Source: an uncultured bacterium (GTDB lineage Bacteria; Acidobacteriota; Thermoanaerobaculia; Multivoradales; JAHZIX01). From it: a stretch of DNA of 17,572 bases. A program made the translations under genes and the position numbers. The notes under the pieces are model-generated. The model was not told the origin of the DNA and did no database searches. It was given only the letters and a program-made list of their open reading frames with translations. The stretch's first letter is position 1, and each line of letters starts with the position of its first letter. The stretch is from the NCBI GenBank assembly GCA_965368975.1, contig CBDUPA010000045.1:1-17572 (forward strand), in the 5' to 3' direction. This document shows, piece by piece, positions 1 to 9,800 of the stretch.

Positions 1-122
1 CAATAATCGAACAACCGGGTCAATGTGATGGCCTTTGAGATGCTTGAGCCGTATGACGGGAAACTGTCACGTACGGTTCTTAGAGGGGCCAGGGGGTGGT
101 AACACCCCCTGGCCTACTCGGC
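1..122 (+). mobile_element. 3' end of a group II intron (domains V and VI), truncated by the window edge
   Basis: Domain V GAGCCGTATGACGGGAAACTGTCACGTACGGTTC at 46-79 (AGC triad, GAAA loop, AC bulge). Domain VI stem at 83-119 (GGCCAGGGGGTG-GTAA-CACCCCCTGGCC) with bulged A116, ending CTACTCGGC at ~122. The probable last codons of the intron-encoded protein (IIEQPGQCDGL*, 3-38) precede domain V. Confidence 0.92.
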
Positions 123-304
123 CACAGCGAGAGCACCGGGGCGCCGGTCTCGTCGCATGGCAATAGCACCTCGACGGTGAGATCCATGAAGCCTCGGGCC
201 TTGAGGCGAAAGGTGTCGCAGGGCTTCAGCTCGGTCAGCGGGCGACCGAGGAGGTCTTCGATCCGTTGGTAGGTCATCTCGTAGCGGTTGCGTCTCGTAC
301 TCAA
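123..304 (-). pseudogene. 5' part of a small mobile-element gene interrupted by the antisense group II intron; resembles DUF6908/DUF1249-type proteins
   Basis: AAGGAG RBS (314-319) lies 9 nt before a TTG start at 304. The frame reads STRRNRYEMTYQRIEDLLGRP...LKARGFMDLTVEVL...GAPVLSL and then runs into intron sequence at 122. The family is recalled from the 'GFMDL.VE...LSL(x)HY' pattern; the diagnostic C-terminal part is outside the window. Confidence 0.6.
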
Positions 305-362
305 TGCTGGGGTCTCCTTGTTGGTTGTCGTGTGCTGGGTGTGCAGGCTCGCCAGGAGCACT

Positions 363-386
363 GAGGGCGGCCCGTGGGCCGCCCTC
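363..386. terminator. GC-rich intergenic hairpin (terminator-like or RNA-processing stem)
   Basis: Perfect 10-bp inverted repeat GAGGGCGGCC-cgtg-GGCCGCCCTC just downstream of the 402-821 gene; no clear U-tract on the minus strand. Confidence 0.45.
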
Positions 387-401
387 GCTCGTGTCGCTGT
401 T

Positions 402-821
402 TCACTTCTTGGCGCTTCGCGCCTTGGATCGTGGCGCCGGCTTGGCCGGCTTGGTTGCCTCCTCCTCGGTCACCTCGGGCAGCAGGAAGCCGACGACGCC
501 GTTGCCGAAGTCTTCAGCGTCGAAGCGCCGCGCCTTCTCGGCGCTCAAGCCGTGGTGCGCAAACAGGCGCTTGCCGTCGACCAGGCGCGAGACGCTGTTG
601 CTCTGCGCCCGCAACCGGTAGGCACCTCGCGCATCCTTGGCAGCGGCCTTCAGACCGATCGCGCGGTTGGCGGAGTCGAAGCCGAGTTGGACGTGGGTCG
701 TGCCCTTGCCCAGCATCTCGACGGTCGCAGCAGTCAGGACCAAGACGCCGCCCCGGCGGACGGTGATCTCGGCGGCAGTGGCGCTGTGGGTGGCGTGGCC
801 TTCGTAGAATTCAAAGCTCAT
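402..821 (-). CDS. Hypothetical 139-aa protein, beta-rich core with Lys/Ala/Pro-rich basic tail; possible DNA-binding protein
   Basis: ATG preceded by an ACAAGGAGACC RBS, upstream sigma70-like promoter, tail KPAKPAPRSKARSAKK. Confidence 0.85.
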   Translation of the reverse strand: MSFEFYEGHATHSATAAEITVRRGGVLVLTAATVEMLGKGTTHVQLGFDSANRAIGLKAAAKDARGAYRLRAQSNSVSRLVDGKRLFAHHGLSAEKARRFDAEDFGNGVVGFLLPEVTEEEATKPAKPAPRSKARSAKK

Positions 822-909
822 AGTCGAGGTCTCCTTGTGTGAGTAGTGAGCTGTGTAGCGGGCTGCCTGTCGCGTCGGACCTGCATGCCATTGCGCTGTG
901 TGGTGGTGG

Positions 910-939
910 GTTATATTCGCGAAAACTGCGAATGGTCAA
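910..939 (-). promoter_or_regulatory. Sigma70-type promoter with a palindromic operator in the spacer
   Basis: TTGACC (939-934), 18-nt spacer, TATAAC (915-910). Inverted repeat ATTCGC-N7-GCGAAT at 915-933. Confidence 0.7.
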
Positions 940-995
940 CCACTCCACGTCGGAAACTTCGGGATTTCGTCGTATTTCTCGGGCCCCACGACTTA

Positions 996-2150
996 TCAGG
1001 CACTTAGAATCTCGTCGAGACGTGTACTCCAGCGTGCAAGGGCATCTTGCTTCTCGGAGTCGTAGCTGTGCCGGTCATAGACGGCAGTAACACCACTCTC
1101 TATATGGTTCAGGAGCTTCGAGACGACCAGTCTTGAGATGCCCATCGACGTCATACAGCTGGCAGCCGTGCGCCGCAGGTCGTGCGGCACAAACTCGACG
1201 TCGGCTCTCTTGGCAATGCGCTCGGCGGCTTTCTGCACGGCAACGATGGGATGTCCTGGCTTACGCGGACTGGCGAACACCCACGGTCCCTTCCCAGTCA
1301 AGGGACGTAGCTTGTCGAGTAGCGCCAGCGCTTGCGGCGCAAGCGGCACCCTGTGGGTGAGACCGTTCTTGGCAACGTGCGCGGGGATGGTCCACCACGC
1401 CCCGTCGATGTACCGCCAGCGCATCTTCAGCACCTCGACGCCGCGCTGTGCGGTCAGCAGCCGCATGCGGAAGGTCGCGGCCATCACCGGGTGCTCGTCA
1501 TCGAGCGCGCACCACACTCGGCAGATCTCCTCCTCGCTGAGCACTCGTTCGCGAGGACGCTCCCGCGCCGGCATCGGTACCAGCAAGCACGGATTGTGCT
1601 CGACGAGGCCGCGCCCGATCCCGAAGTTGAAGATCTTCGAGATCAGCGCCTTGACACGGTTAGCCATGATCGGTGCGCCACGGGCAACGATGGCGTCCAG
1701 GATCTCGGTTACCTCAGCACGGCCCAGACTCTTGGCCTTGCGGCGCTGCCACTGCGGCAAGAGATCGACGCGCAGAATGCGCTCGTCTTCCTGCCAGCGC
1801 CGCTTCTTGATCTTCGCGTGGCGCTCCAGGTAGACCTCGGCGAGTTCTCCAAAGGTGACAGCCTCGCGCTCGGCAACTTTCTCGACCTGTGGGTCTTCAC
1901 CCTTGGCGATGGCGGCCAGCTTCTCTCTTGCCTCGTCGCGGGCCTCGGCCAGACTCATCACGGGATAGACGCCGAGATTGAGGCGACGCTTGCTGCCGCT
2001 GGCACCCTTGTAGCGCACGATGAACGTCTTGCGGCCACTCTTCGAGACCCGCACCCCGAAGCCGGGCAGCTGCTCATCCCAGTAGTCGGTCATCCAGCGC
2101 CCGGCAACGAAGGTATCGATCGCGCGGTGGGTCAAGTGCGCTTTCGGCAT
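996..2150 (-). CDS. Tyrosine recombinase / phage-type integrase with N-terminal arm DNA-binding domain (P4-like)
   Basis: N-terminal WDEQLPGFGVRVSKSGRKTFIVRY...LGVYPVMSLAEAR (arm domain). Full catalytic set: R (TAQRGVE), K (AKNG), HDLRRT, H (LNH), Y (VTAVYDRHSY). Confidence 0.95.
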   Translation of the reverse strand: MPKAHLTHRAIDTFVAGRWMTDYWDEQLPGFGVRVSKSGRKTFIVRYKGASGSKRRLNLGVYPVMSLAEARDEAREKLAAIAKGEDPQVEKVAEREAVTFGELAEVYLERHAKIKKRRWQEDERILRVDLLPQWQRRKAKSLGRAEVTEILDAIVARGAPIMANRVKALISKIFNFGIGRGLVEHNPCLLVPMPARERPRERVLSEEEICRVWCALDDEHPVMAATFRMRLLTAQRGVEVLKMRWRYIDGAWWTIPAHVAKNGLTHRVPLAPQALALLDKLRPLTGKGPWVFASPRKPGHPIVAVQKAAERIAKRADVEFVPHDLRRTAASCMTSMGISRLVVSKLLNHIESGVTAVYDRHSYDSEKQDALARWSTRLDEILSA

Positions 2151-2154
2151 CGCC

Positions 2155-3141
2155 TCACCTCACCGGCTGCACCTGGCACCACTGTCCGGCGTCGGCGATC
2201 GTGATCGAGGCGTAGAGATGGACTCCCAGCACCGCACCCGCCTCCCGCAGCCGGTGCGTAAAGCGCTCATCCTGTCGGCTCGGTCGCGGGTTGCCCGAAG
2301 GGTGGTTGTGGGCGACGACAATCGCGCGTGCATTAGCGAGTAGCGCGGGCGCGAGGATCCCACGCGGCTCGGCCTGAGTTGCGGTCATCGTGCCAATGTA
2401 CGGGACGTCCCAACCGATAACGCGACGCGCGCCGTCGAGGAAGAGCACGGCCACAGCTTCGCGGTCGTAGCTCTGCAGGATTTGCCACAGAAGCGCTGCG
2501 GCGTCGCCGTGAGCGCGGACTTGGGGATACGTCTGCAGCGGTGCATTCGACTCGCGTACCAACTCGACACGGAGACGTGGCAGGTCCGGCAGCGAGGGCA
2601 ACTCGGCAGCCCAGGCTGGACGAACCGGTTGACGCTGTGGAAGGTTTGCGCGACACGGTCGAGGCTTCTTCCGATCGGCCGGCAGCGCGGCAATCAGCGG
2701 AGCCAGCGTGCCCTTGTCGAGTTGGATCTGATCCAGCACCGCCGCCAGCTCTGCGCCGGGCCAAAGGTCGACCCAGCCGAAGCGCGGCACCCGCGCGCCA
2801 ACCTCGAAGCCGACGTCCTGAGCAAGATCGCGGAACCGATGATTGTGGTACCCGCGATGACAGCAATCCTGGAGACCGCGCAGCCCGTTGACCCAGTGCA
2901 CCATCGCGTGAAGCAGAGCCGCTGCGACCTGGGAGGTCGAACCCGTTAGTGCATGGGCGGGTATCCGCAGACGTTGCGACTGCTCGTCGTCCTCGTGCGC
3001 ACCGCGTGAGATTCCCTCGATCCGCACGCGTGGTGGAACCTGCGCCACCTCGGGACCGAAGCGGTCGAGGAGCTGAGCGCAACAGCGCTCAAGCTCCTGT
3101 TCCACTCGTGCAACGCCGGTGCCGGTGTCCATGACCGGCAT
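2155..3141 (-). CDS. Fusion protein: degenerate SprT-like zincin N-domain plus RadC-like JAB domain
   Basis: C-terminal DREAVAVLFLD...IGTMTATQAEPRGIL..ALLANARAIVVAHNHPSGNPRPSRQD is the RadC/JAB signature. N-terminal LLHAMVH..N...LQDC...GYHNHRFRDLAQDVG matches SprT-like HExxH...H proteins with E replaced by A. Confidence 0.85.
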   Translation of the reverse strand: MPVMDTGTGVARVEQELERCCAQLLDRFGPEVAQVPPRVRIEGISRGAHEDDEQSQRLRIPAHALTGSTSQVAAALLHAMVHWVNGLRGLQDCCHRGYHNHRFRDLAQDVGFEVGARVPRFGWVDLWPGAELAAVLDQIQLDKGTLAPLIAALPADRKKPRPCRANLPQRQPVRPAWAAELPSLPDLPRLRVELVRESNAPLQTYPQVRAHGDAAALLWQILQSYDREAVAVLFLDGARRVIGWDVPYIGTMTATQAEPRGILAPALLANARAIVVAHNHPSGNPRPSRQDERFTHRLREAGAVLGVHLYASITIADAGQWCQVQPVR

Positions 3142-3144
3142 CGC

Positions 3145-3552
3145 TCAGCTCTCCGGGGCCGGAGTAGTGCCTAACATCTCTTCGAGCTGGGAAGCCTCAG
3201 CGCCCAGACGTTCGGACAGCTCGACCGCCTGCAGGTGGAGTTGCACCAGTTCGGGATCGTCGATGCTTCCTGGCTCGGCACCGAGGTGGTGGATGTAGCC
3301 TTGAAGCTGACGCAGATCTCGGAGCGCCGCGCGTAGGTCGGATTTGACCGGCACCTCGCCGCGCTCCTTGTAGGTCTCTTCATGGAGCAGGGCGTTGTCA
3401 TAGAGCGTGACGCCCACGCTACGGAAGGCGTCGCGGATGTGCGCTTCCGGGTAGAGGTGCAAATACGTCTCGCGGAAGACGGCGTGGGCTTCCCAATGCT
3501 TCGCTTCGAGACTCGGTGACAGGGGATTGCTATGCTCCGGCTGGTCACTCAT
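3145..3552 (-). CDS. Hypothetical 135-aa, probably helical protein; first gene of the hyp-radC-int operon
   Basis: Strong AAGGAGG RBS before ATG 3552. Gaps of only 3 and 4 nt to the next two genes indicate an operon. Confidence 0.85.
   Translation of the reverse strand: MSDQPEHSNPLSPSLEAKHWEAHAVFRETYLHLYPEAHIRDAFRSVGVTLYDNALLHEETYKERGEVPVKSDLRAALRDLRQLQGYIHHLGAEPGSIDDPELVQLHLQAVELSERLGAEASQLEEMLGTTPAPES
3528..3536 (+). promoter_or_regulatory. Extended -10 promoter for the predicted antisense RNA
   Basis: TG-c-TATGCT at 3528-3536, inside the first codons of the 135-aa gene on the opposite strand and about 5 nt before the first RNA hairpin. Confidence 0.55.
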
Positions 3553-3617
3553 GGGACTTTTCCTCCTTTGAGTGGCTAGGCCCGGTTCGGTGCTCCAACA
3601 CCGGATCGGGCCGTTTG
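3541..3617 (+). ncRNA. Predicted cis-antisense RNA (SymR-like architecture) covering the RBS and start codon of the 135-aa gene
   Basis: Two adjacent stems: CTGGTCACTCA/TGAGTGGCTAG (3541-3579, loop holds the anti-SD TCCTCCTT) and GGCCCGGTTCGGTG-CTCCAA-CACCGGATCGGGCC (3579-3612) followed by GTTT. All four non-Watson-Crick positions are G-U pairs on the + strand. Confidence 0.6.
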
Positions 3618-3795
3618 CTGGAAGGCTGATCAGCCTGAACCAGCAAGAATGGGCAGGCAGTCAACCCGGTGGAGCTGGTACCACTACAGCGGGAGCAGGC
3701 GAGTTGTCAACCAAGATCAAGGTTACCTGATATTGAAGCCGCTATCCTTGTTACCTCAACCTGTAAGCTCGGGAGAAGTCAGACCGGCGACCCAA

Positions 3796-3817
3796 GGCCA
3801 AGCCCCAGGGCTTTGCC
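3796..3817 (-). terminator. Possible terminator hairpin after the giant surface-protein gene
   Basis: GGCAAAGCCC-TG-GGGCTTGGCC stem 10 nt after the stop at 3828; weak U-tract. Confidence 0.35.
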
Positions 3818-3827
3818 GGCCTGATGC

Positions 3828-6800
3828 TCAGATATTGCAGTGCAAGTTGTTGTAGGCGTCTAGCTCATCCTTCAGCTCGTTGGCTTGCTTGCGATCGCTT
3901 CCCTTCGGGTTGCTGCTCGGCGGGAAGTCTTCCAGGAAGGCATCCGCCGCCTCGACAATGGGCAGGATGAAGGGATCGGTGCCGTTGGCCAGGTTGAGCT
4001 TGGTGGCGACCAGGTGGTGCGCCAGCTTGCTGGCGGCGTCGGGACCGCCGTACTGCAAGAAGCCCATCAGCTCGACGTCGCCGTACTCGACCCTACCGAG
4101 GGTGAGATGATCGACGGGCCAGGCTTCACGGTGGGTCTTCCAGTAGCCCGGTGAGCGGGTACAGGCGTCGTCGTCGAGGATCTGCCCTTCGGTCGCGTCC
4201 TGGAGGAGCAAGACGAGATCCGGCTCGACGAGCTGCAAGCCCAGCTGCAGCGTTTCGCGTCCCTCGCCTATGTCATCGCCCAGGACGCTGACGGGTACTT
4301 GTACGCTGGTCGCACCGGGCTCCAGGACCAGACTCCCGGTCGCCGCCAGGTAGTCCTCACCAGCCGTGGCCGTGACGTCGACCGTCTCGTAGGTCAAAGC
4401 TACCGGTTCAGTGAGAGCACAACTGAGGTGGACGGTGAAGAGCAGCTCCGCCGTGTCCCCGATGTCGCCTTCGGCCACCGACTGGCTGGTCGCCCAGATC
4501 ACTGGCTGGCGCAGGCTGGTCAGCGAGACGGCAGCTACCTGGTCAGTAGTATCCTGCTTCGGCTGGGCCTGGACGCGTACGCGCACGGACTCGACACCCG
4601 TGATGGCGTCCAGGGTCTCACTGAGCGTCAAAGCCTCGACGGCACCAACGACATCACCGCTGTCGAAGGCATCGAGCACCAAGCCGCCGCCGTCCAGGGC
4701 TTCGACCTGGACGCGGGCCGTCTCGCCGTCAGCCAGGCTCAGCGTGAGCGCGAAAGCGAAACGCAGCTCACCGCTGCCGAACGTACCGCCACCGTAGGCT
4801 CGGACGTCGACGGTGTGCGTCCACAAACCGTCCGTCTGGGTCCAGGCCTGCGTGCCGAGGGCCGGCAGCAACTCCGGTCCTGGGCACAGCTCGTCGTCGA
4901 GTATCGTCGCCAGCGCTTCGGCATCGGCCAGTTGTGCGACGGTTGGCTCGCTCAGTTCGAGGCGGAAGGTCTCTTCGGCCGGTTCGAAGAGGGTATCGCC
5001 GAGAATGGGAACGTTGACGTTGTGCGTCGTGACGGTCGGGGCGAAGGTCAGCTCGCCCTCGGTCGCGGTGTAGTCCTCTCCCGCCAGAGCCGTATCGTCG
5101 GCAGTGCTGTAGCGCACGGTGACGTCGCGGTCGGCCGGATTCGACAGCCGGACCTCGAAGCGTGCTTCTCCGCCGTCCGCATCGCCCTCCTCGACCTCGA
5201 CATCAGCCGCCGAGAGCAGGGCTTGGTCGTCGTCGAGGATCGTGACTTGCGCCTCACCATTGACGAGCACAGCTCCTTCGACGCTCGTCACCTGCACCAG
5301 GAACATCTCGTCGAGTTCGTCCACATCGTCGGCGGTGACCGGCACCGGGATCACGCTCTGCGCCTCTCCGCTCGGAACAGTAAGACTACCGGCGGTGGGC
5401 GTGTAGTCCTGGCCGGCGAGGGCACTGCCGTCGACGGTCGCGAAGTAGACTGTGACCGGCTGGCTCGACGCCTCGGACAGCAGCACGGGTACGCCCGCCA
5501 GGCCGGCGGCTTCCTCGACGGTCACATCGCCGAGGCTCACATCCGGCTCAGCGGAGACGGCGTCGACGGTGACGCTCAACTCGGCGCAGCCACGGCCGCC
5601 GTCGTCGTCGAAGACGCACAGGCGCACCAGATAGGTGCCGGCTTCGCTGTACGGATGCGAAGCCTGTACCGTGCCGCCGCCGGCTTGCTGGTCGAGCGCG
5701 ACGACTTCGGGCGGACCGTCACCCCAGTCGATCTCGGCGCGGTGGGTGTCGAACAGACCGGGGTCGGTGAAGATGCCGACGACCTCCAGCGGACCGCCGG
5801 CCGCAAGGTCGGAGTCCGTGGTCAGTACGGCGGTCGGTGCGACGTTGCGCACGGTGACCGTGGCGCGGTCGCACGCGGGTGCACCACCGGCGGCCTGCCA
5901 GGCGGCCTCGTTGACGCAGACCTCGTGGGTAAAGACGCCGTCGTCGCCGAAGCTGCGCGTCGCTTCGATCGGGCCAATGCCGCAGTGTGGGGTGCCCAGC
6001 GTCGCCGGCAGGAACGGACCACCGGCCCAGCTGACCTCGGCACCGTAGCTGCGCGGGGGTAGCTGCGGACCGCTGATACGCAGCTCATCGAGGTCGCAGG
6101 TCTCGAGCACCTCGCCGATGATGAAGGCTTCGTCGATGCTGCCGATCCACGGCTCGTAGTACTCCGGGTTGACGCCCAGCCAGGTGCGGTCGAAGCCGGG
6201 GCCGACGTAGCCCTGGCTGACCAACTCCTGCCCGTCGACGTACAGGCGCACACTCTGCAACGCATGGCCATCCTGGATCGGACCGATCTGCTCGTAGACA
6301 CCGGCGACAAAGGTCCATTCGCCGTGGCGGATCGGGACTACACCGAGTACGGCTTCGTTGCCCTGGAAGATCGACCAGCCGAAGTCGCCGCTGCGATAGT
6401 CGACCACCAGCGTACGGTCGAAGCCGCCGCTGTCGTGCGAGATGACGGTGTTGATGACGTAGCTGAAACCCGGCACGGTCTTGACCCACGCGCCCATGGT
6501 CAGCTTGGGCTGGGCGGTGACGTTGATGTCGACCGGGATCTCGATTGAGTCCCCGTCGAAGAAACCACCGAACTCATAAGCGCCGCCCCGATAGCCCTCG
6601 GTCGGCGTGGGTGTGCCCCAGATGGAGCCGTGATTCTCGTTGCCGCTGGCGTCCTGGACGTCGCCATCGAGCGGCAAGTAGGCGAGCAGCCGGCCGTCGT
6701 CGAGCGGTGACAGGCCGGGCTGATCGAGCGACGCCTGCAGCGTGTAGAGCGAGCCCTCGTCGACACTGCCTGGGAGGATGCTGACGCGCGGCGCCTGCGG

Positions 6801-9800
6801 ATCGATGAACGTGACCGGCAGCTCGACCGAGTGATCGTCCGGCGTTGTGTCGACGCCTTGGCTGCCGTCGTCCCACACCTCGAGCTGCACGAGTACCCCG
6901 TCGCCAGGGGTAGTGGTGTTGGGCGCTCGTACCTCGACAGTGACGTCGAACTGCGCTCGGTAGGCCAAGCGGTCGAGGTTCCAGGTCAGCGCACCGGTCG
7001 CGGCATCGAGGCTCGACGGCGCCGGCTCGATGGTGACGATCTCGAGCGGTGGCGGCACCACGGCGCGCAGCTCGACATTCGTCGGTTCGAGCGTGCCGTG
7101 GTTGGTCAGGCTCAGCGTCAGCGGCACGCTCTCGCCAGGGCGCAAGCTGCTCGGCTGCACGTCGCCGGTGAGGCCGAAGTCGAGCAGCGGACCACGCCAG
7201 TAGACCAGGAAGCTGTCGCACGCCTCGCCGCCGTCATCGTCGGTGACGCAGACGCGCACCGGGTAGTCGGTCTCCAGGTCGTAGGCATGCTGCGCCACGA
7301 TGCGGCCGGCGCTGCCTTCGGCGCTGGCTGTGGGCGTCACAGCGACGCTCTCGATCGTACCGTCGCCCCAGTCGACCGTCGCCGTGTGCGTATCCGCCGG
7401 GCCGGCGTCCCAGTAGCTGGCGTCGAGTTCGAGGAAGCCTCCGACATAGGCGGGACGGTCGGGACCGGCCTCGAGCTGGGGCTCGGCGTTGATGACCCTC
7501 AGCGGGAAGTCACCGCAGCCCACATCGGTGCCGTCGTCGACACATACCTGGGCCACGAAGTCGCCGTTGTCCGCATAGGCGTGGCTGGCTCGAATACGAC
7601 CGAAGGTCTGGCCGCTGGCAACCCAGCTATCGACACCGGCGACCGTGGTGTTGCTGTCACCCCAGTCAACCGTCGCGCTGTGACTGTCCGCGCTACCCGG
7701 ATCGACAAAGGCGGCGCCGAGCGGGAAGGTCGAGCCTTCGAGCACCGCCAAGCCCTCGACCCGCACGTCGTAGAACTGCACCAGGCCGAGGTTCAGGGTG
7801 TAGAAGCCGAAGCGGCCACTACCGAAGGCGTAGTCGCCGCTCAGGTCGGCGATGGGGTTGCCGTTCATCCAGATCTGTACCCGATCGGCACGGCTCTCGA
7901 CGCGGAAGCGGTACTCCCAGCCGTTGTTCCACGGACTGAAACCCCAGGCATCGTAGGAACGCGAGAGTTCCTCGACGCCGTTCGAGAGGCCGTTGCACTG
8001 CCAGTTGACGTGCGCCGCGAGTTCAGACACCAGCGGCACGCCGCGCACGCGCGACACCGCCAGGCCGCCCTCGGCGTAGGCGCTGCCGCATTCCGAGTTG
8101 GCCGAGATCTGGGCGCCGCTACGCTTCCAGTCGACGAGCAGGAAGTCGGCCTCCGGGTTGGTGGCGTCGCCCGGACGGTAGCCGAGCACGAAGCCGAACC
8201 AGTCGTAGTCCCAGAACGGGATCGGTCGCACCGTGAATTCGAGCGTCAGGCCGGTCGCCAGGTAGGGGCTCAGGAAAACCGTGGCCTGCGAGTCGTTCAG
8301 CTGCTCGACCTGCGTGCCCGACGGCGCGACTCGCCAATCCGGCGAGCGCCGGTCGTAAGCCCAGCTCTCGGCCGTCCACAGGCGCAGGTCAGCACCCTCG
8401 GTCGACGCGCTGACCACCGGCGCCGCGTTGACGACGCCCAGGGTCTGTGAGCGGCACGCTTCGCCGCCGTCGTCATCCCGCAGGCACAAGCGCACGGTGT
8501 AGCTGCCGTCCTGGCCGTAAGCGTGCGAAGCGCGTACCAAGGAAGCTGCGGCATCGACCGTGGCCGACTCGACGACTCCGTCGCCCCAGTCGACCGTCGC
8601 GCTGTGGCTGTCGGCGCTGCCGGCGTCGGAATATGCGACTTCGATCAGCAGGGCCTCACCCTCGGCCGGAGCGGCCAGGAAGAGCGGATCGAGCTCGGGG
8701 GCGGCGTTGGTGATCGTCACCTGCGCGCTCGCGATGTCGATTTCACCGCTGTCATCGATGACCTGCAGCGCGACGGTGAAGACGCCATCGTCCGCGAAGG
8801 TCCAGATCGGCGTAACGGTCGAGGCATTATCGAAGACGCCGTCGCCGTCGAGATCCCAGGCGTAGGCCACCAGGGTACCGTCGCGGTCGGTGGAGGCCGA
8901 GCCGTCGAGTTGCACGGGCGTGCCCTCGGTGCCGCTGTAGGGGCCACCGGCGTCCGCACGAGCGCTGGCGATGACATTGGTATCACTCGCCTGGTTATTG
9001 GCGGGTGTCGGGTCCGGCCCAGCCGAACCGTCGTCGGTGACGGTGGCGGTCATCGTCAACTCGGTGACGCCCGCTGGTAGTGCGGCGTCGACATCGACGG
9101 TGAGGGTGACGTCGGTGGTCGTACCTGCACCCAGGTCACCGAGCTGCCACTCCAGCGTGTCCGGACTGCTCGTGCCGGCAGGGAGTTCGACGCGCAGCGT
9201 CACGCCGGTCCGCGCCCCCGGCCCGGCATTCACAACGGTCGCGGTGACGGTCAGGGAATCGCCTGGATGCACCCGCTCGACGCCGTCGACCAGCCGCACG
9301 GCCAGGCCGACATCGGTCGTGGTGTAGCTCAGGCGATGCTCGTTGTTGCTCTCGTTGCACTCGGTGAGCGCATCGTCGGGGTCAACCGAGGCAATAACGG
9401 TCTGCGCACCAAAACTCAGAACGGAGGCATCGAAAGTCAGCGCGATGTCCTCATAGCGTCCCGACGCCAGCACCTGCCTGGTCGCAACGCTGCCGAGCAG
9501 CGCACCACCTGCGTGCGGATCTCCGTCGTAGACGTGCACCGGCACGCCAGCCGGAGCGGCGGACGCGCCGCCGTTCCCGACGCGCACCGTCACTGTAATC
9601 CATGGCCAGGTATCGAGGTCGACGCGCAGGTACGACGCGGACAGGTCCGCCGCCGCCAGCGGGTCGACGCCCTCGGGCGCCAGGTTGGCGCGGAAGGTGT
9701 TGTGTGTCAGCCAGGGGTGCGGCGCCGTCGCTGGTACCGAGCCATCGGCGCGCACGTTGTCGGCGTGGAACGCGTGCTGGTTCCACACCTTGCGCGCCGG

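Follow-up and report, generated by a model that had tools for sequence, protein, structure and literature searches.

The stretch of DNA analysed here (the window) comprises 17,572 nucleotides (nt) of an uncultured acidobacterium of the order Multivoradales (assembly GCA_965368975.1, contig CBDUPA010000045.1, positions 1 to 17,572 of the forward strand). The plus strand at 3528–3621 probably encodes a cis-antisense RNA which, judging from its sequence and position, would pair with the start of the oppositely oriented open reading frame (ORF) ORF1, thereby lowering ORF1 and the RadC fusion protein and integrase coupled to it. We have high confidence that this two-hairpin element is transcribed as an RNA of ~75–80 nt. 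With moderate confidence we propose that the RNA would block initiation at ORF1, as SymR does on symE and RNA-OUT on the IS10 transposase mRNA, and, again with moderate confidence, that in this genome it would thereby lower the RadC fusion and the integrase. The features concerned are the following.

3528–3536, plus strand: predicted extended -10 of the antisense RNA (TG at 3528–3529, c, TATGCT at 3531–3536), inside ORF1 codons 6–9
3542–3578, plus strand: antisense hairpin 1, with a 10-bp outer stem and a loop holding the anti-Shine-Dalgarno CUCC and a variable spacer
3579–3612, plus strand: antisense hairpin 2, with a 14-bp G+C-rich stem and a variable 6-nt loop (CTCCAA in the window copy)
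3613–3621, plus strand: U-containing tail GTTTGCTGG after hairpin 2, probable 3' end of the ~75–80-nt RNA
3681–3710, minus strand: probable operon mRNA promoter (TTGACA 3710–3705, 18-nt spacer, TAGTGG 3686–3681), the first conserved leader block, in 12/12 copies
3553–3680, minus strand: mRNA leader of ~130 nt with Shine-Dalgarno AAGGAGG (3568–3562)
3145–3552, minus strand: ORF1, a 135-amino-acid (aa) acidic protein, all-helical in its model, of an unnamed family (none in Pfam, NCBIfam, PHROG or PADLOC)
2155–3141, minus strand: 328-aa fusion protein, N-terminal domain (possibly SprT-like) plus C-terminal RadC/JAB domain (PF04002, 2.4e-28)
996–2150, minus strand: 384-aa P4-type tyrosine integrase (Arm-DNA-bind_3, Phage_int_M, Phage_integrase; phrog_1)

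The three minus-strand ORFs lie head to tail, separated by gaps of 3 and 4 nt. A first-pass annotation, made from the sequence alone, had already described three tightly packed genes with these gaps; the ORF coordinates agree, and its description of the sequence was correct to a base or two. It had further proposed a cis-antisense RNA with its own promoter in the first codons, in a symE/SymR-type layout, an extended -10 hidden in the EHSN codons, four wobble positions that all favour the antisense strand and a terminal hairpin with a CTCCAA loop. The last three of these are borne out in the window: the -10 reads TG-c-TATGCT, at four stem positions the pair is not Watson-Crick, being G.U when read on the plus strand and A.C when read on the minus strand, and the terminal hairpin is hairpin 2. 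The antisense RNA itself is strongly supported by the covariation, the strand-specific G.U bias and the conserved -10 described below.

Folded as RNA, the plus strand reaches -47.4 kcal/mol (z -5.6), and none of 200 shuffles was as good; the minus strand reaches -33.5 kcal/mol (z -3.6), with the ORF1 start codon in a 6-bp stem. The complement of that start codon, CAT at 3550–3552, lies in the stem of hairpin 1, and the antisense RNA, given where it lies, is fully complementary to the Shine-Dalgarno sequence as well as to the start and first codons of ORF1. From its sequence, hairpin 2 is probably both terminator stem and kissing loop. At gathering thresholds, Rfam gave group II intron matches elsewhere in the window and nothing else, and in a permissive scan of 3480–3840 the best model was naRNA4, at 25.4 bits versus the 59.5 required.

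The 7.1-Mb genome of the window holds 14 matches to ORF1: 12 full-length (75–87% identity), one cut by a contig end and one divergent (contig C11, 37% identity), which is paired with a divergent copy of the RNA. Two non-coding blocks are conserved among the 12 full-length copies, namely a promoter-like block (TTGACA/C-18 nt-TAnTGG) and a block running from hairpin 2 to codon 9. Mean pairwise identity among the 12 copies was 95% in the hairpin 2 stems, 95% in the first 26 coding nt of ORF1 and 98% at the third positions of codons 1–8, values to be compared with 58–66% at four-fold degenerate sites in the rest of ORF1 and in the RadC gene. It fell to 44% in the hairpin 2 loop and to 43% in the spacer between the Shine-Dalgarno sequence and the ATG, which forms the hairpin 1 loop; the 12 copies carry 11 different hairpin 2 loops, and no two of them share a spacer. 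The residues encoded over the -10 box vary (EHSN, QHTN, QHSN, QLTK), and TGnTA(T/A)GCT is kept in 12/12 copies despite this variation.

The stem of hairpin 2 was also scored cell by cell in these copies. Read on the plus strand, its 168 cells comprise 141 Watson-Crick, 25 G.U and 2 mismatched cells, versus 141 Watson-Crick and 27 mismatched cells on the minus strand; the non-Watson-Crick cells include single private changes in the copies on contigs C48, C49 and C51. The C48 copy carries a compensatory T-A to C-G change, and in the C55 copy both old wobbles of this hairpin have become Watson-Crick pairs.

In order to follow the element beyond this genome, a covariance model (R1) was built from the 12 own copies and a second one (R2) on the R1 hits. 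R1 recovered its 12 source copies together with the divergent C11 copy (37.8 bits). Of 41 genomes belonging to the same order, 19 had R1 matches, this one counted and often with several matches per genome. R2, run at E<=1e-4 on a phylum-wide sample of 151 genomes, had matches in 10, again with this one counted, under stricter filters and with few candidates scored per genome; related genomes in these counts are not independent samples. The spread of the motif is thus patchy, as expected of mobile DNA. The aligned set consisted of 97 matches, 89 of them full-length (12 own and 77 foreign).

The first-pass annotation had named covariation upstream of ORF1 homologues as a check of the RNA, and this check came out strongly in its favour. 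Across the 97 aligned matches, 95.5% of the cells are paired, compared with 77.2% in shuffles, and changes on both sides were found in 23 of the 24 pairs (10/10 in hairpin 1 and 13/14 in hairpin 2). There were 341 double-change cells versus 83 +/- 7.6 in shuffles, and none of 500 shuffles reached the observed values. When the partners were slid by 1–3 columns, pairing fell to 32–52%. An operator or att palindrome in double-stranded DNA was also considered and rejected, since compensatory changes and strand-specific G.U pairs argue against it.

The strand on which the hairpins act was examined separately. They might act on the sense mRNA leader, as an attenuator, a protein-binding site or a switch that sequesters the ribosome-binding site, the antisense promoter being a coincidence. 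The location between the promoter-like block and the start codon would suit such a role, as would the sense-strand fold, which is better than shuffles (z -3.6) and holds the start codon in a 6-bp stem. The pairing statistics speak for the other strand: in the 86 rows with at most three gapped pairs, the antisense strand has 1524 Watson-Crick and 414 G.U cells, whereas there are 35 A.C cells (G.U on the sense strand), 24 of which lie in the doubtful outermost pair. Because the alignment had been fitted by an antisense-oriented model, both strands were also compared by alignment-free folding, and the antisense strand was more stable in 12/12 own and 77/77 foreign copies (mean -45 versus -28.5 kcal/mol), the sense fold thus being the weaker in 89/89. 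Furthermore, hairpin 1 on the sense strand would carry three to four A.C mismatches in many relatives, and a TAnnnT hexamer stands at a fixed place on the antisense strand in 71/77. An action on the sense leader with a coincidental promoter therefore appears extremely improbable.

The hexamer just mentioned, mostly TAGACT, occupies fixed model columns in these 71 foreign copies; at least two of the six exceptions carry TAGAAT, displaced by 3 nt. In 81/89 full-length matches, 6 nt separate the end of the hexamer from the first stem. After hairpin 2 the tail follows the consensus G-Y-U-U-S-S-U-U, with T at +3 in 80/89 and at +4 in 72/89. On the mRNA side, the relatives carry TTGACA-N16-18-TAnnnT upstream of the leader, at a variable distance.

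A further motif, approximately GTCGTGTCCTAA-nn-GCGTGTTGG, was noticed 60–110 nt upstream of hairpin 2 (sense direction) at eight loci (L087, L048, L051, L064, L068, L078, L091, L102), and it is present at the divergent C11 copy too. It may represent a different type of promoter, or else a binding site.

Several observations weigh against an antisense RNA that controls the whole operon. The pair counts come from a structure-guided alignment built with an antisense-oriented model and lean toward that structure and strand, and the sense-strand RNA, too, folds better than shuffles. A simple consensus scan of 3000–4200 returned no sigma-70 promoter, the probable operon promoter included, and no intrinsic terminator (criterion, at least 5 T in 8 nt), the -35 region of the antisense RNA is not conserved, and the terminator tail is weak, with a mean of 3.5 T in its first 8 nt (24% T overall), below the 5 of the scan. 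As for the downstream genes, the evidence for coupling to RadC and the integrase consists of the 3–4-nt gaps, and outside this genome RadC and the integrase do not follow ORF1. Finally, copy-specific control through the loops is speculative: the divergence of the hairpin 2 loops (44% identity) is not clearly beyond neutral (58–66%), and drift could also yield the single identical pair of loops among 66.

To what the RNA is attached was determined from both directions. On the RNA side, the CAT of hairpin 1 is the complement of the ATG of an ORF in 88 of the 89 full-length matches, and the hairpin 1 loop contains CTCC or TCCT in 85 of them. On the protein side, among 11 loci of other genomes fetched with ORF1, nine show the RNA where the gene begins, with a weak match in one of the nine. 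A scan for related loci with an alignment of close ORF1 relatives gave one relevant locus, in a Holophagales metagenome-assembled genome (35% identity); no RNA match was found beside the ORF1 homologue there. Gene calls in the foreign loci followed a simple ORF rule. By these calls, 47 of 74 first genes fall into the 135-aa family (profile E<1e-3), and the other 27 come from other families (e.g., ~200-aa proteins) or are short, perhaps broken, frames. All first genes share their first ~8 residues, approximately M-x-D/N-x-x-E/Q/K-S-T/I. These residues coincide with the hairpin 1 5' arm and the -10 box on the other strand, which argues that they are conserved for the RNA and not for the protein.

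Downstream of the first gene, 18 of 98 proteins in other genomes have any Pfam family (E<=1e-4), one of them RadC, and tblastn detected RadC-like sequence in three foreign loci. A relative of the integrase lies within the fetched flank in at least 16 of 77 loci (a lower bound, obtained with a single query); 11 of these carry it on the same strand, upstream of the RNA and frequently ~200 nt away from it. There are tRNA genes within the fetched flank in 14 loci. Since RadC and the integrase do not follow ORF1 elsewhere, integrase control cannot be the general purpose of the family. The first-pass annotation had treated the three genes as one module, which fits the ~13 copies in this genome and fails elsewhere, where the RNA occurs with ORF1 alone (RadC in 1/98, an integrase relative in 16/77). 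By sequence comparison, what is conserved is a unit of the RNA and the gene that follows it, close to the end of islands at which the integrase or a tRNA lies, and the ORF1/RadC/integrase operon is this genome's version of it.

The attachment to start codons also bears on a DNA-level explanation, in which the structure would be functional on plus-strand single-stranded DNA, as a folded recombination site, a single-strand origin or a promoter in island transfer. Covariation with G.T pairs alone cannot separate RNA from single-stranded DNA, a tyrosine recombinase is encoded nearby, and in 2/12 copies the element is near an island end beside an att site. However, a DNA site would have no reason to be locked to the ORF1 start codon (88/89) and Shine-Dalgarno sequence (85/89), and the -10 hexamer fixed 6 nt before the first stem, together with the U-containing tail, fits a transcription unit. 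Conjugation or rolling-circle genes were, moreover, not seen in the 20-kb island examined. We consider a single-stranded DNA function very unlikely. A single-strand promoter of the plasmid leading-region type was set aside separately, the -10 box here being outside the stems.

Under the cis-antisense reading, transcription of the RNA would start at ~3542–3544, just after the extended -10 within ORF1 codons 6–9. The RNA would fold into two stable hairpins and end after the short U-containing tail. A search of sequencing runs for this DNA listed none of RNA and a single one of DNA, with a 0.14 share of words. Its target would be the mRNA leader from ~3621 down to the ORF1 start codon, where RNA-mRNA pairing may block ribosome binding or trigger cleavage on ORF1. 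RadC and the integrase would likewise be kept low because the three genes, lying 3–4 nt apart, are probably coupled.

Control of this kind has precedents. SymR is described as a cis-encoded antisense RNA over the ribosome-binding site and start codon of symE, with mainly translational control (PMC4147584). The likeness to SymR/symE of Escherichia coli, as portrayed there, extends to the position of the antisense RNA opposite the 5' end of its target and to a target of more than 100 aa that is not hydrophobic. The differences are that ORF1 has no SymE family match and is all-helical in its model, that a toxicity role is here only putative, that the target is the first gene of an operon which also contains RadC and the integrase and lies on a multicopy island, and that the RNA has no Rfam match.

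In IS10, RNA-OUT binds the transposase mRNA at its translation initiation region and brings about multicopy inhibition, in which repression grows with copy number (PMC5006887); art200 of IS200 is reported to be similar (PMC4513863). The RNA-OUT/RNA-IN pair of IS10/Tn10, so described, resembles the present case in that a mobile element directs a small, stably folded antisense RNA against the initiation region of an mRNA leading to a recombinase. In contrast to RNA-OUT, the RNA here would act directly on ORF1, two genes upstream of the recombinase, rather than on the recombinase; it belongs to a tyrosine-integrase island instead of an insertion sequence and has two hairpins; and its loops differ among co-resident copies, which would weaken trans-inhibition.

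Similar in logic to the proposed coupling is the c4 antisense RNA of the immI region of phages P1/P7, which prevents an upstream cistron from being translated and, through this, a coupled downstream gene from being expressed, and in which a few loop bases set specificity between related elements. Unlike the RNA proposed here, c4 is processed from the same transcript and acts on downstream sites, and is thus not a true overlapping antisense RNA; c4 and the RNA proposed here are not known to be related in sequence.

A type I toxin-antitoxin (addiction) system was considered as an alternative. ORF1 would then be a toxin, and loss of the island, followed by decay of the RNA, would kill the cell and so stabilise the island. 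The layout matches that of symE/SymR, whose toxin is large (113 aa) and not hydrophobic, and SymE and RalR are known exceptions to the small hydrophobic toxin type (PMC4147584). The unit conserved across genomes, just the RNA plus ORF1 on mobile islands, would be in line with addiction, as would the multicopy state of the ORF1 family within genomes and the complementarity of the antisense RNA to the Shine-Dalgarno sequence and start of ORF1, by which it can, by position, block translation.

The properties of ORF1 and of its position argue the other way. With an isoelectric point of 4.96, a grand average of hydropathy of -0.57 and a best 19-residue hydropathy window of 0.34, the protein is acidic, soluble and without a hydrophobic segment, and does not have the typical trait of type I toxins, that of a small hydrophobic peptide with a membrane segment. 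It matched no family in Pfam (E<=0.01), NCBIfam, PHROG or PADLOC, and hence no toxin family among them. At least two unrelated first-gene families stand behind the same RNA, 27 of 74 first genes being off the 135-aa profile, and it would be unusual for a toxin to head an integrase operon. Taken together, we regard addiction as unlikely; excision control, the other role put forward in the first-pass annotation, would be a possibility.

Further searches left ORF1 without a named relative, in agreement with the first-pass annotation, which had called the first protein unrecognised. The family counts 202 representatives at E<=1e-3 in a library of 1.8 billion proteins. No Pfam family was present among 70 of its members, and the SymE family profile (Pfam-A) matched neither ORF1 nor these 70; a PDB sequence search with the 70-member profile gave a best E of 0.44. 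A first AlphaFold2 model of ORF1 had a mean predicted local distance difference test score (pLDDT) of 52.7, and a second, based on the 70-sequence alignment, one of 88.9; the latter model is all-helical, and its C-terminal half forms a long helical hairpin. Foldseek of the model against PDB and BFVD gave no match at E<=0.001, VIA-align returned generic helical hairpins only (best Z 8.4, below the chance level for helical models), the ESM Atlas yielded low-score fungal clusters only, and tblastn of ORF1 against plasmid and phage collections found no match.

For the cis-antisense reading, two further steps are speculative. An island entering a cell without its RNA might undergo a burst of operon expression followed by shut-off, and variable loops on invariant stems might let each co-resident island answer mainly to its own RNA. 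In this scheme the RNA plus the first eight codons would form a portable 'establishment switch' of acidobacterial integrative islands, with burst, integration and self-silencing, and islands with different loops would be mutually non-repressing (heteroimmune). We put this forward tentatively, as a possibility that we ourselves regard as doubtful. Heteroimmunity, if true, would explain how a dozen islands came to be piled up in one genome, partly in tRNA-Thr arrays. The loop data are compatible with private control determined by the loops and do not go beyond neutral drift. Diversifying selection on the loops was set aside as not demonstrable with 6–7 nt.

The genomic setting of the module was reconstructed from its copies. 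By tblastn with the three proteins, the order ORF1/RadC fusion/integrase occurs at ~13 places in this genome, several of them cut by contig ends; the copy near 34 kb of contig C28 has a truncated RadC gene and no integrase. Similarity among copies starts sharply at GGTTGAC, ~160 nt before the ORF1 start codon, and continues through the integrase into a fourth gene, the conserved island backbone being ~4.8 kb in all. This fourth gene is as follows.

402–939 including its promoter, minus strand: fourth backbone gene (821–402), 139 aa, in 5/7 copies compared

Its own near-consensus promoter reads TTGACC (939–934), 17 nt, ATATAA (916–911), and the protein has no family in Pfam, NCBIfam, PHROG or PADLOC. 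The integrase, placed last by the first-pass annotation, is consequently not the final gene of the module in the five copies that have the fourth one.

Also in that annotation, the lack of an adjacent tRNA gene had been noted. This is correct for the window, which contains no tRNA gene, but does not hold for all paralogous copies: in 2/12, tRNA-Thr(CGT), or the 3' half of it, precedes the leader by ~200 nt. An island on contig C15 is bounded by a direct repeat of this tRNA half ~20 kb away. Among its cargo are a second tyrosine recombinase, an ABC transporter and two proteins of the TIR-SIR2 and nSTAND1-pentapeptide types, and these 20 kb showed no genes for conjugation or rolling-circle replication. 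The position of the tRNA-Thr and the extent of the backbone indicate that the module is the tRNA-proximal head of an integrative-island family and not the tail of an element.

The 3' half of tRNA-Thr(CGT) plus ~90 nt was found in four copies (C15:12367, C15:32296, C28:53299 and C41:302), and three copies of the module lie within 32 kb on C28. Both observations speak for related islands arranged in tandem at a single tRNA gene, and the many short contigs made of island pieces suggest that the assembly breaks on islands. A repeat of ~135 nt, at ~26.7 kb of C15 (island coordinate 5583–5719) and at least 10 other places, is common to many copies and lies beyond the 4.8-kb backbone.

With regard to the two other operon proteins, the first-pass annotation had seen a SprT-like/RadC fusion. 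The RadC/JAB half is confirmed by PF04002 on residues 212–317 (2.4e-28; 98.9 bits versus a cut-off of 22.1), with the metal motif H-x-H ... S-x-x-D present in the translation as AHNHPSGNPRPSRQD. The SprT-like half was not recovered by Pfam, with no match to the N-terminal half at E<=10; its nearest ESM Atlas clusters are SprT-like (score 0.87), which we treat as a lead only. The HExxH-like site (window 2860–2880, minus strand) is degenerate, reading HAMVH in the window copy and HA[MIT]VH in 12/12, and the catalytic Glu is absent. Since all 12 copies lack this glutamate, the N-terminal part of the fusion probably binds rather than cleaves. The integrase matched PF13356 Arm-DNA-bind_3 (4.2e-20), PF22022 Phage_int_M (8.6e-11) and PF00589 Phage_integrase (1.6e-14), all above cut-offs, and phrog_1 (1.9e-60).

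Enterobacterial islands with P4-type integrases carry RadC-like genes (YeeS, YfjY) beside anti-restriction and toxin-antitoxin genes. They share with the present islands the P4-type integrase domains, the integration at tRNA genes (here in 2/12 copies) and a RadC/JAB gene in the backbone, and they differ in that RadC is here fused to an N-terminal domain with a degenerate HExxH. We know of no counterpart of the gene order or of ORF1 in them, nor of any antisense RNA described there.

Cis-antisense control of mobile-element genes is of a textbook kind. What appears to be new is the RNA family itself, together with its association with an unnamed family of proteins and its use as a portable 5' cassette. 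No prior description of the RNA or of the island family was found in the literature by titles and the beginnings of abstracts, a search whose coverage did not include subscription journals. To our knowledge, RNA regulators of the Acidobacteriota are almost unknown, and no antisense-controlled module is on record in the phylum. To this phylum of mostly uncultured soil and sediment bacteria, the present element adds a structured RNA family (~90 copies examined, with covariation in nearly every pair), linked to the end at which integrative islands with defence genes (TIR-SIR2, STAND NTPase) enter.

For annotation, this means that the conserved N-termini of many 'hypothetical proteins' would be due to an RNA and a promoter on the other strand. 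If repression and loop specificity hold true, the family would represent a natural set of orthogonal antisense switches and an explanation for the coexistence of related islands. If the establishment switch does as well, it would amount to an RNA-based immunity and incompatibility system for genomic islands, in which the RadC fusion would be anti-defence-like.

The remainder of the window contains further genes. A 2828-aa protein encoded at 3828–12314 (minus strand), with Calx-beta, PKD, DUF11, FG-GAP, CARDB and Laminin_G_3 domains, resembles giant surface adhesins, and the 3' end of a paralogue of its gene is directly upstream of the module copy on contig C42; such adhesin-like genes may be cargo of a neighbouring island within the array. 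A group II intron was recognised by a reverse transcriptase/maturase ORF (13484–15439) and by Rfam domain matches at 15171–15324 and 13398–13460 (minus strand); an RHS-repeat gene (15411–17564, minus strand) abuts it. The 3' end of a second group II intron lies at 44–122 (plus strand), at the contig edge.

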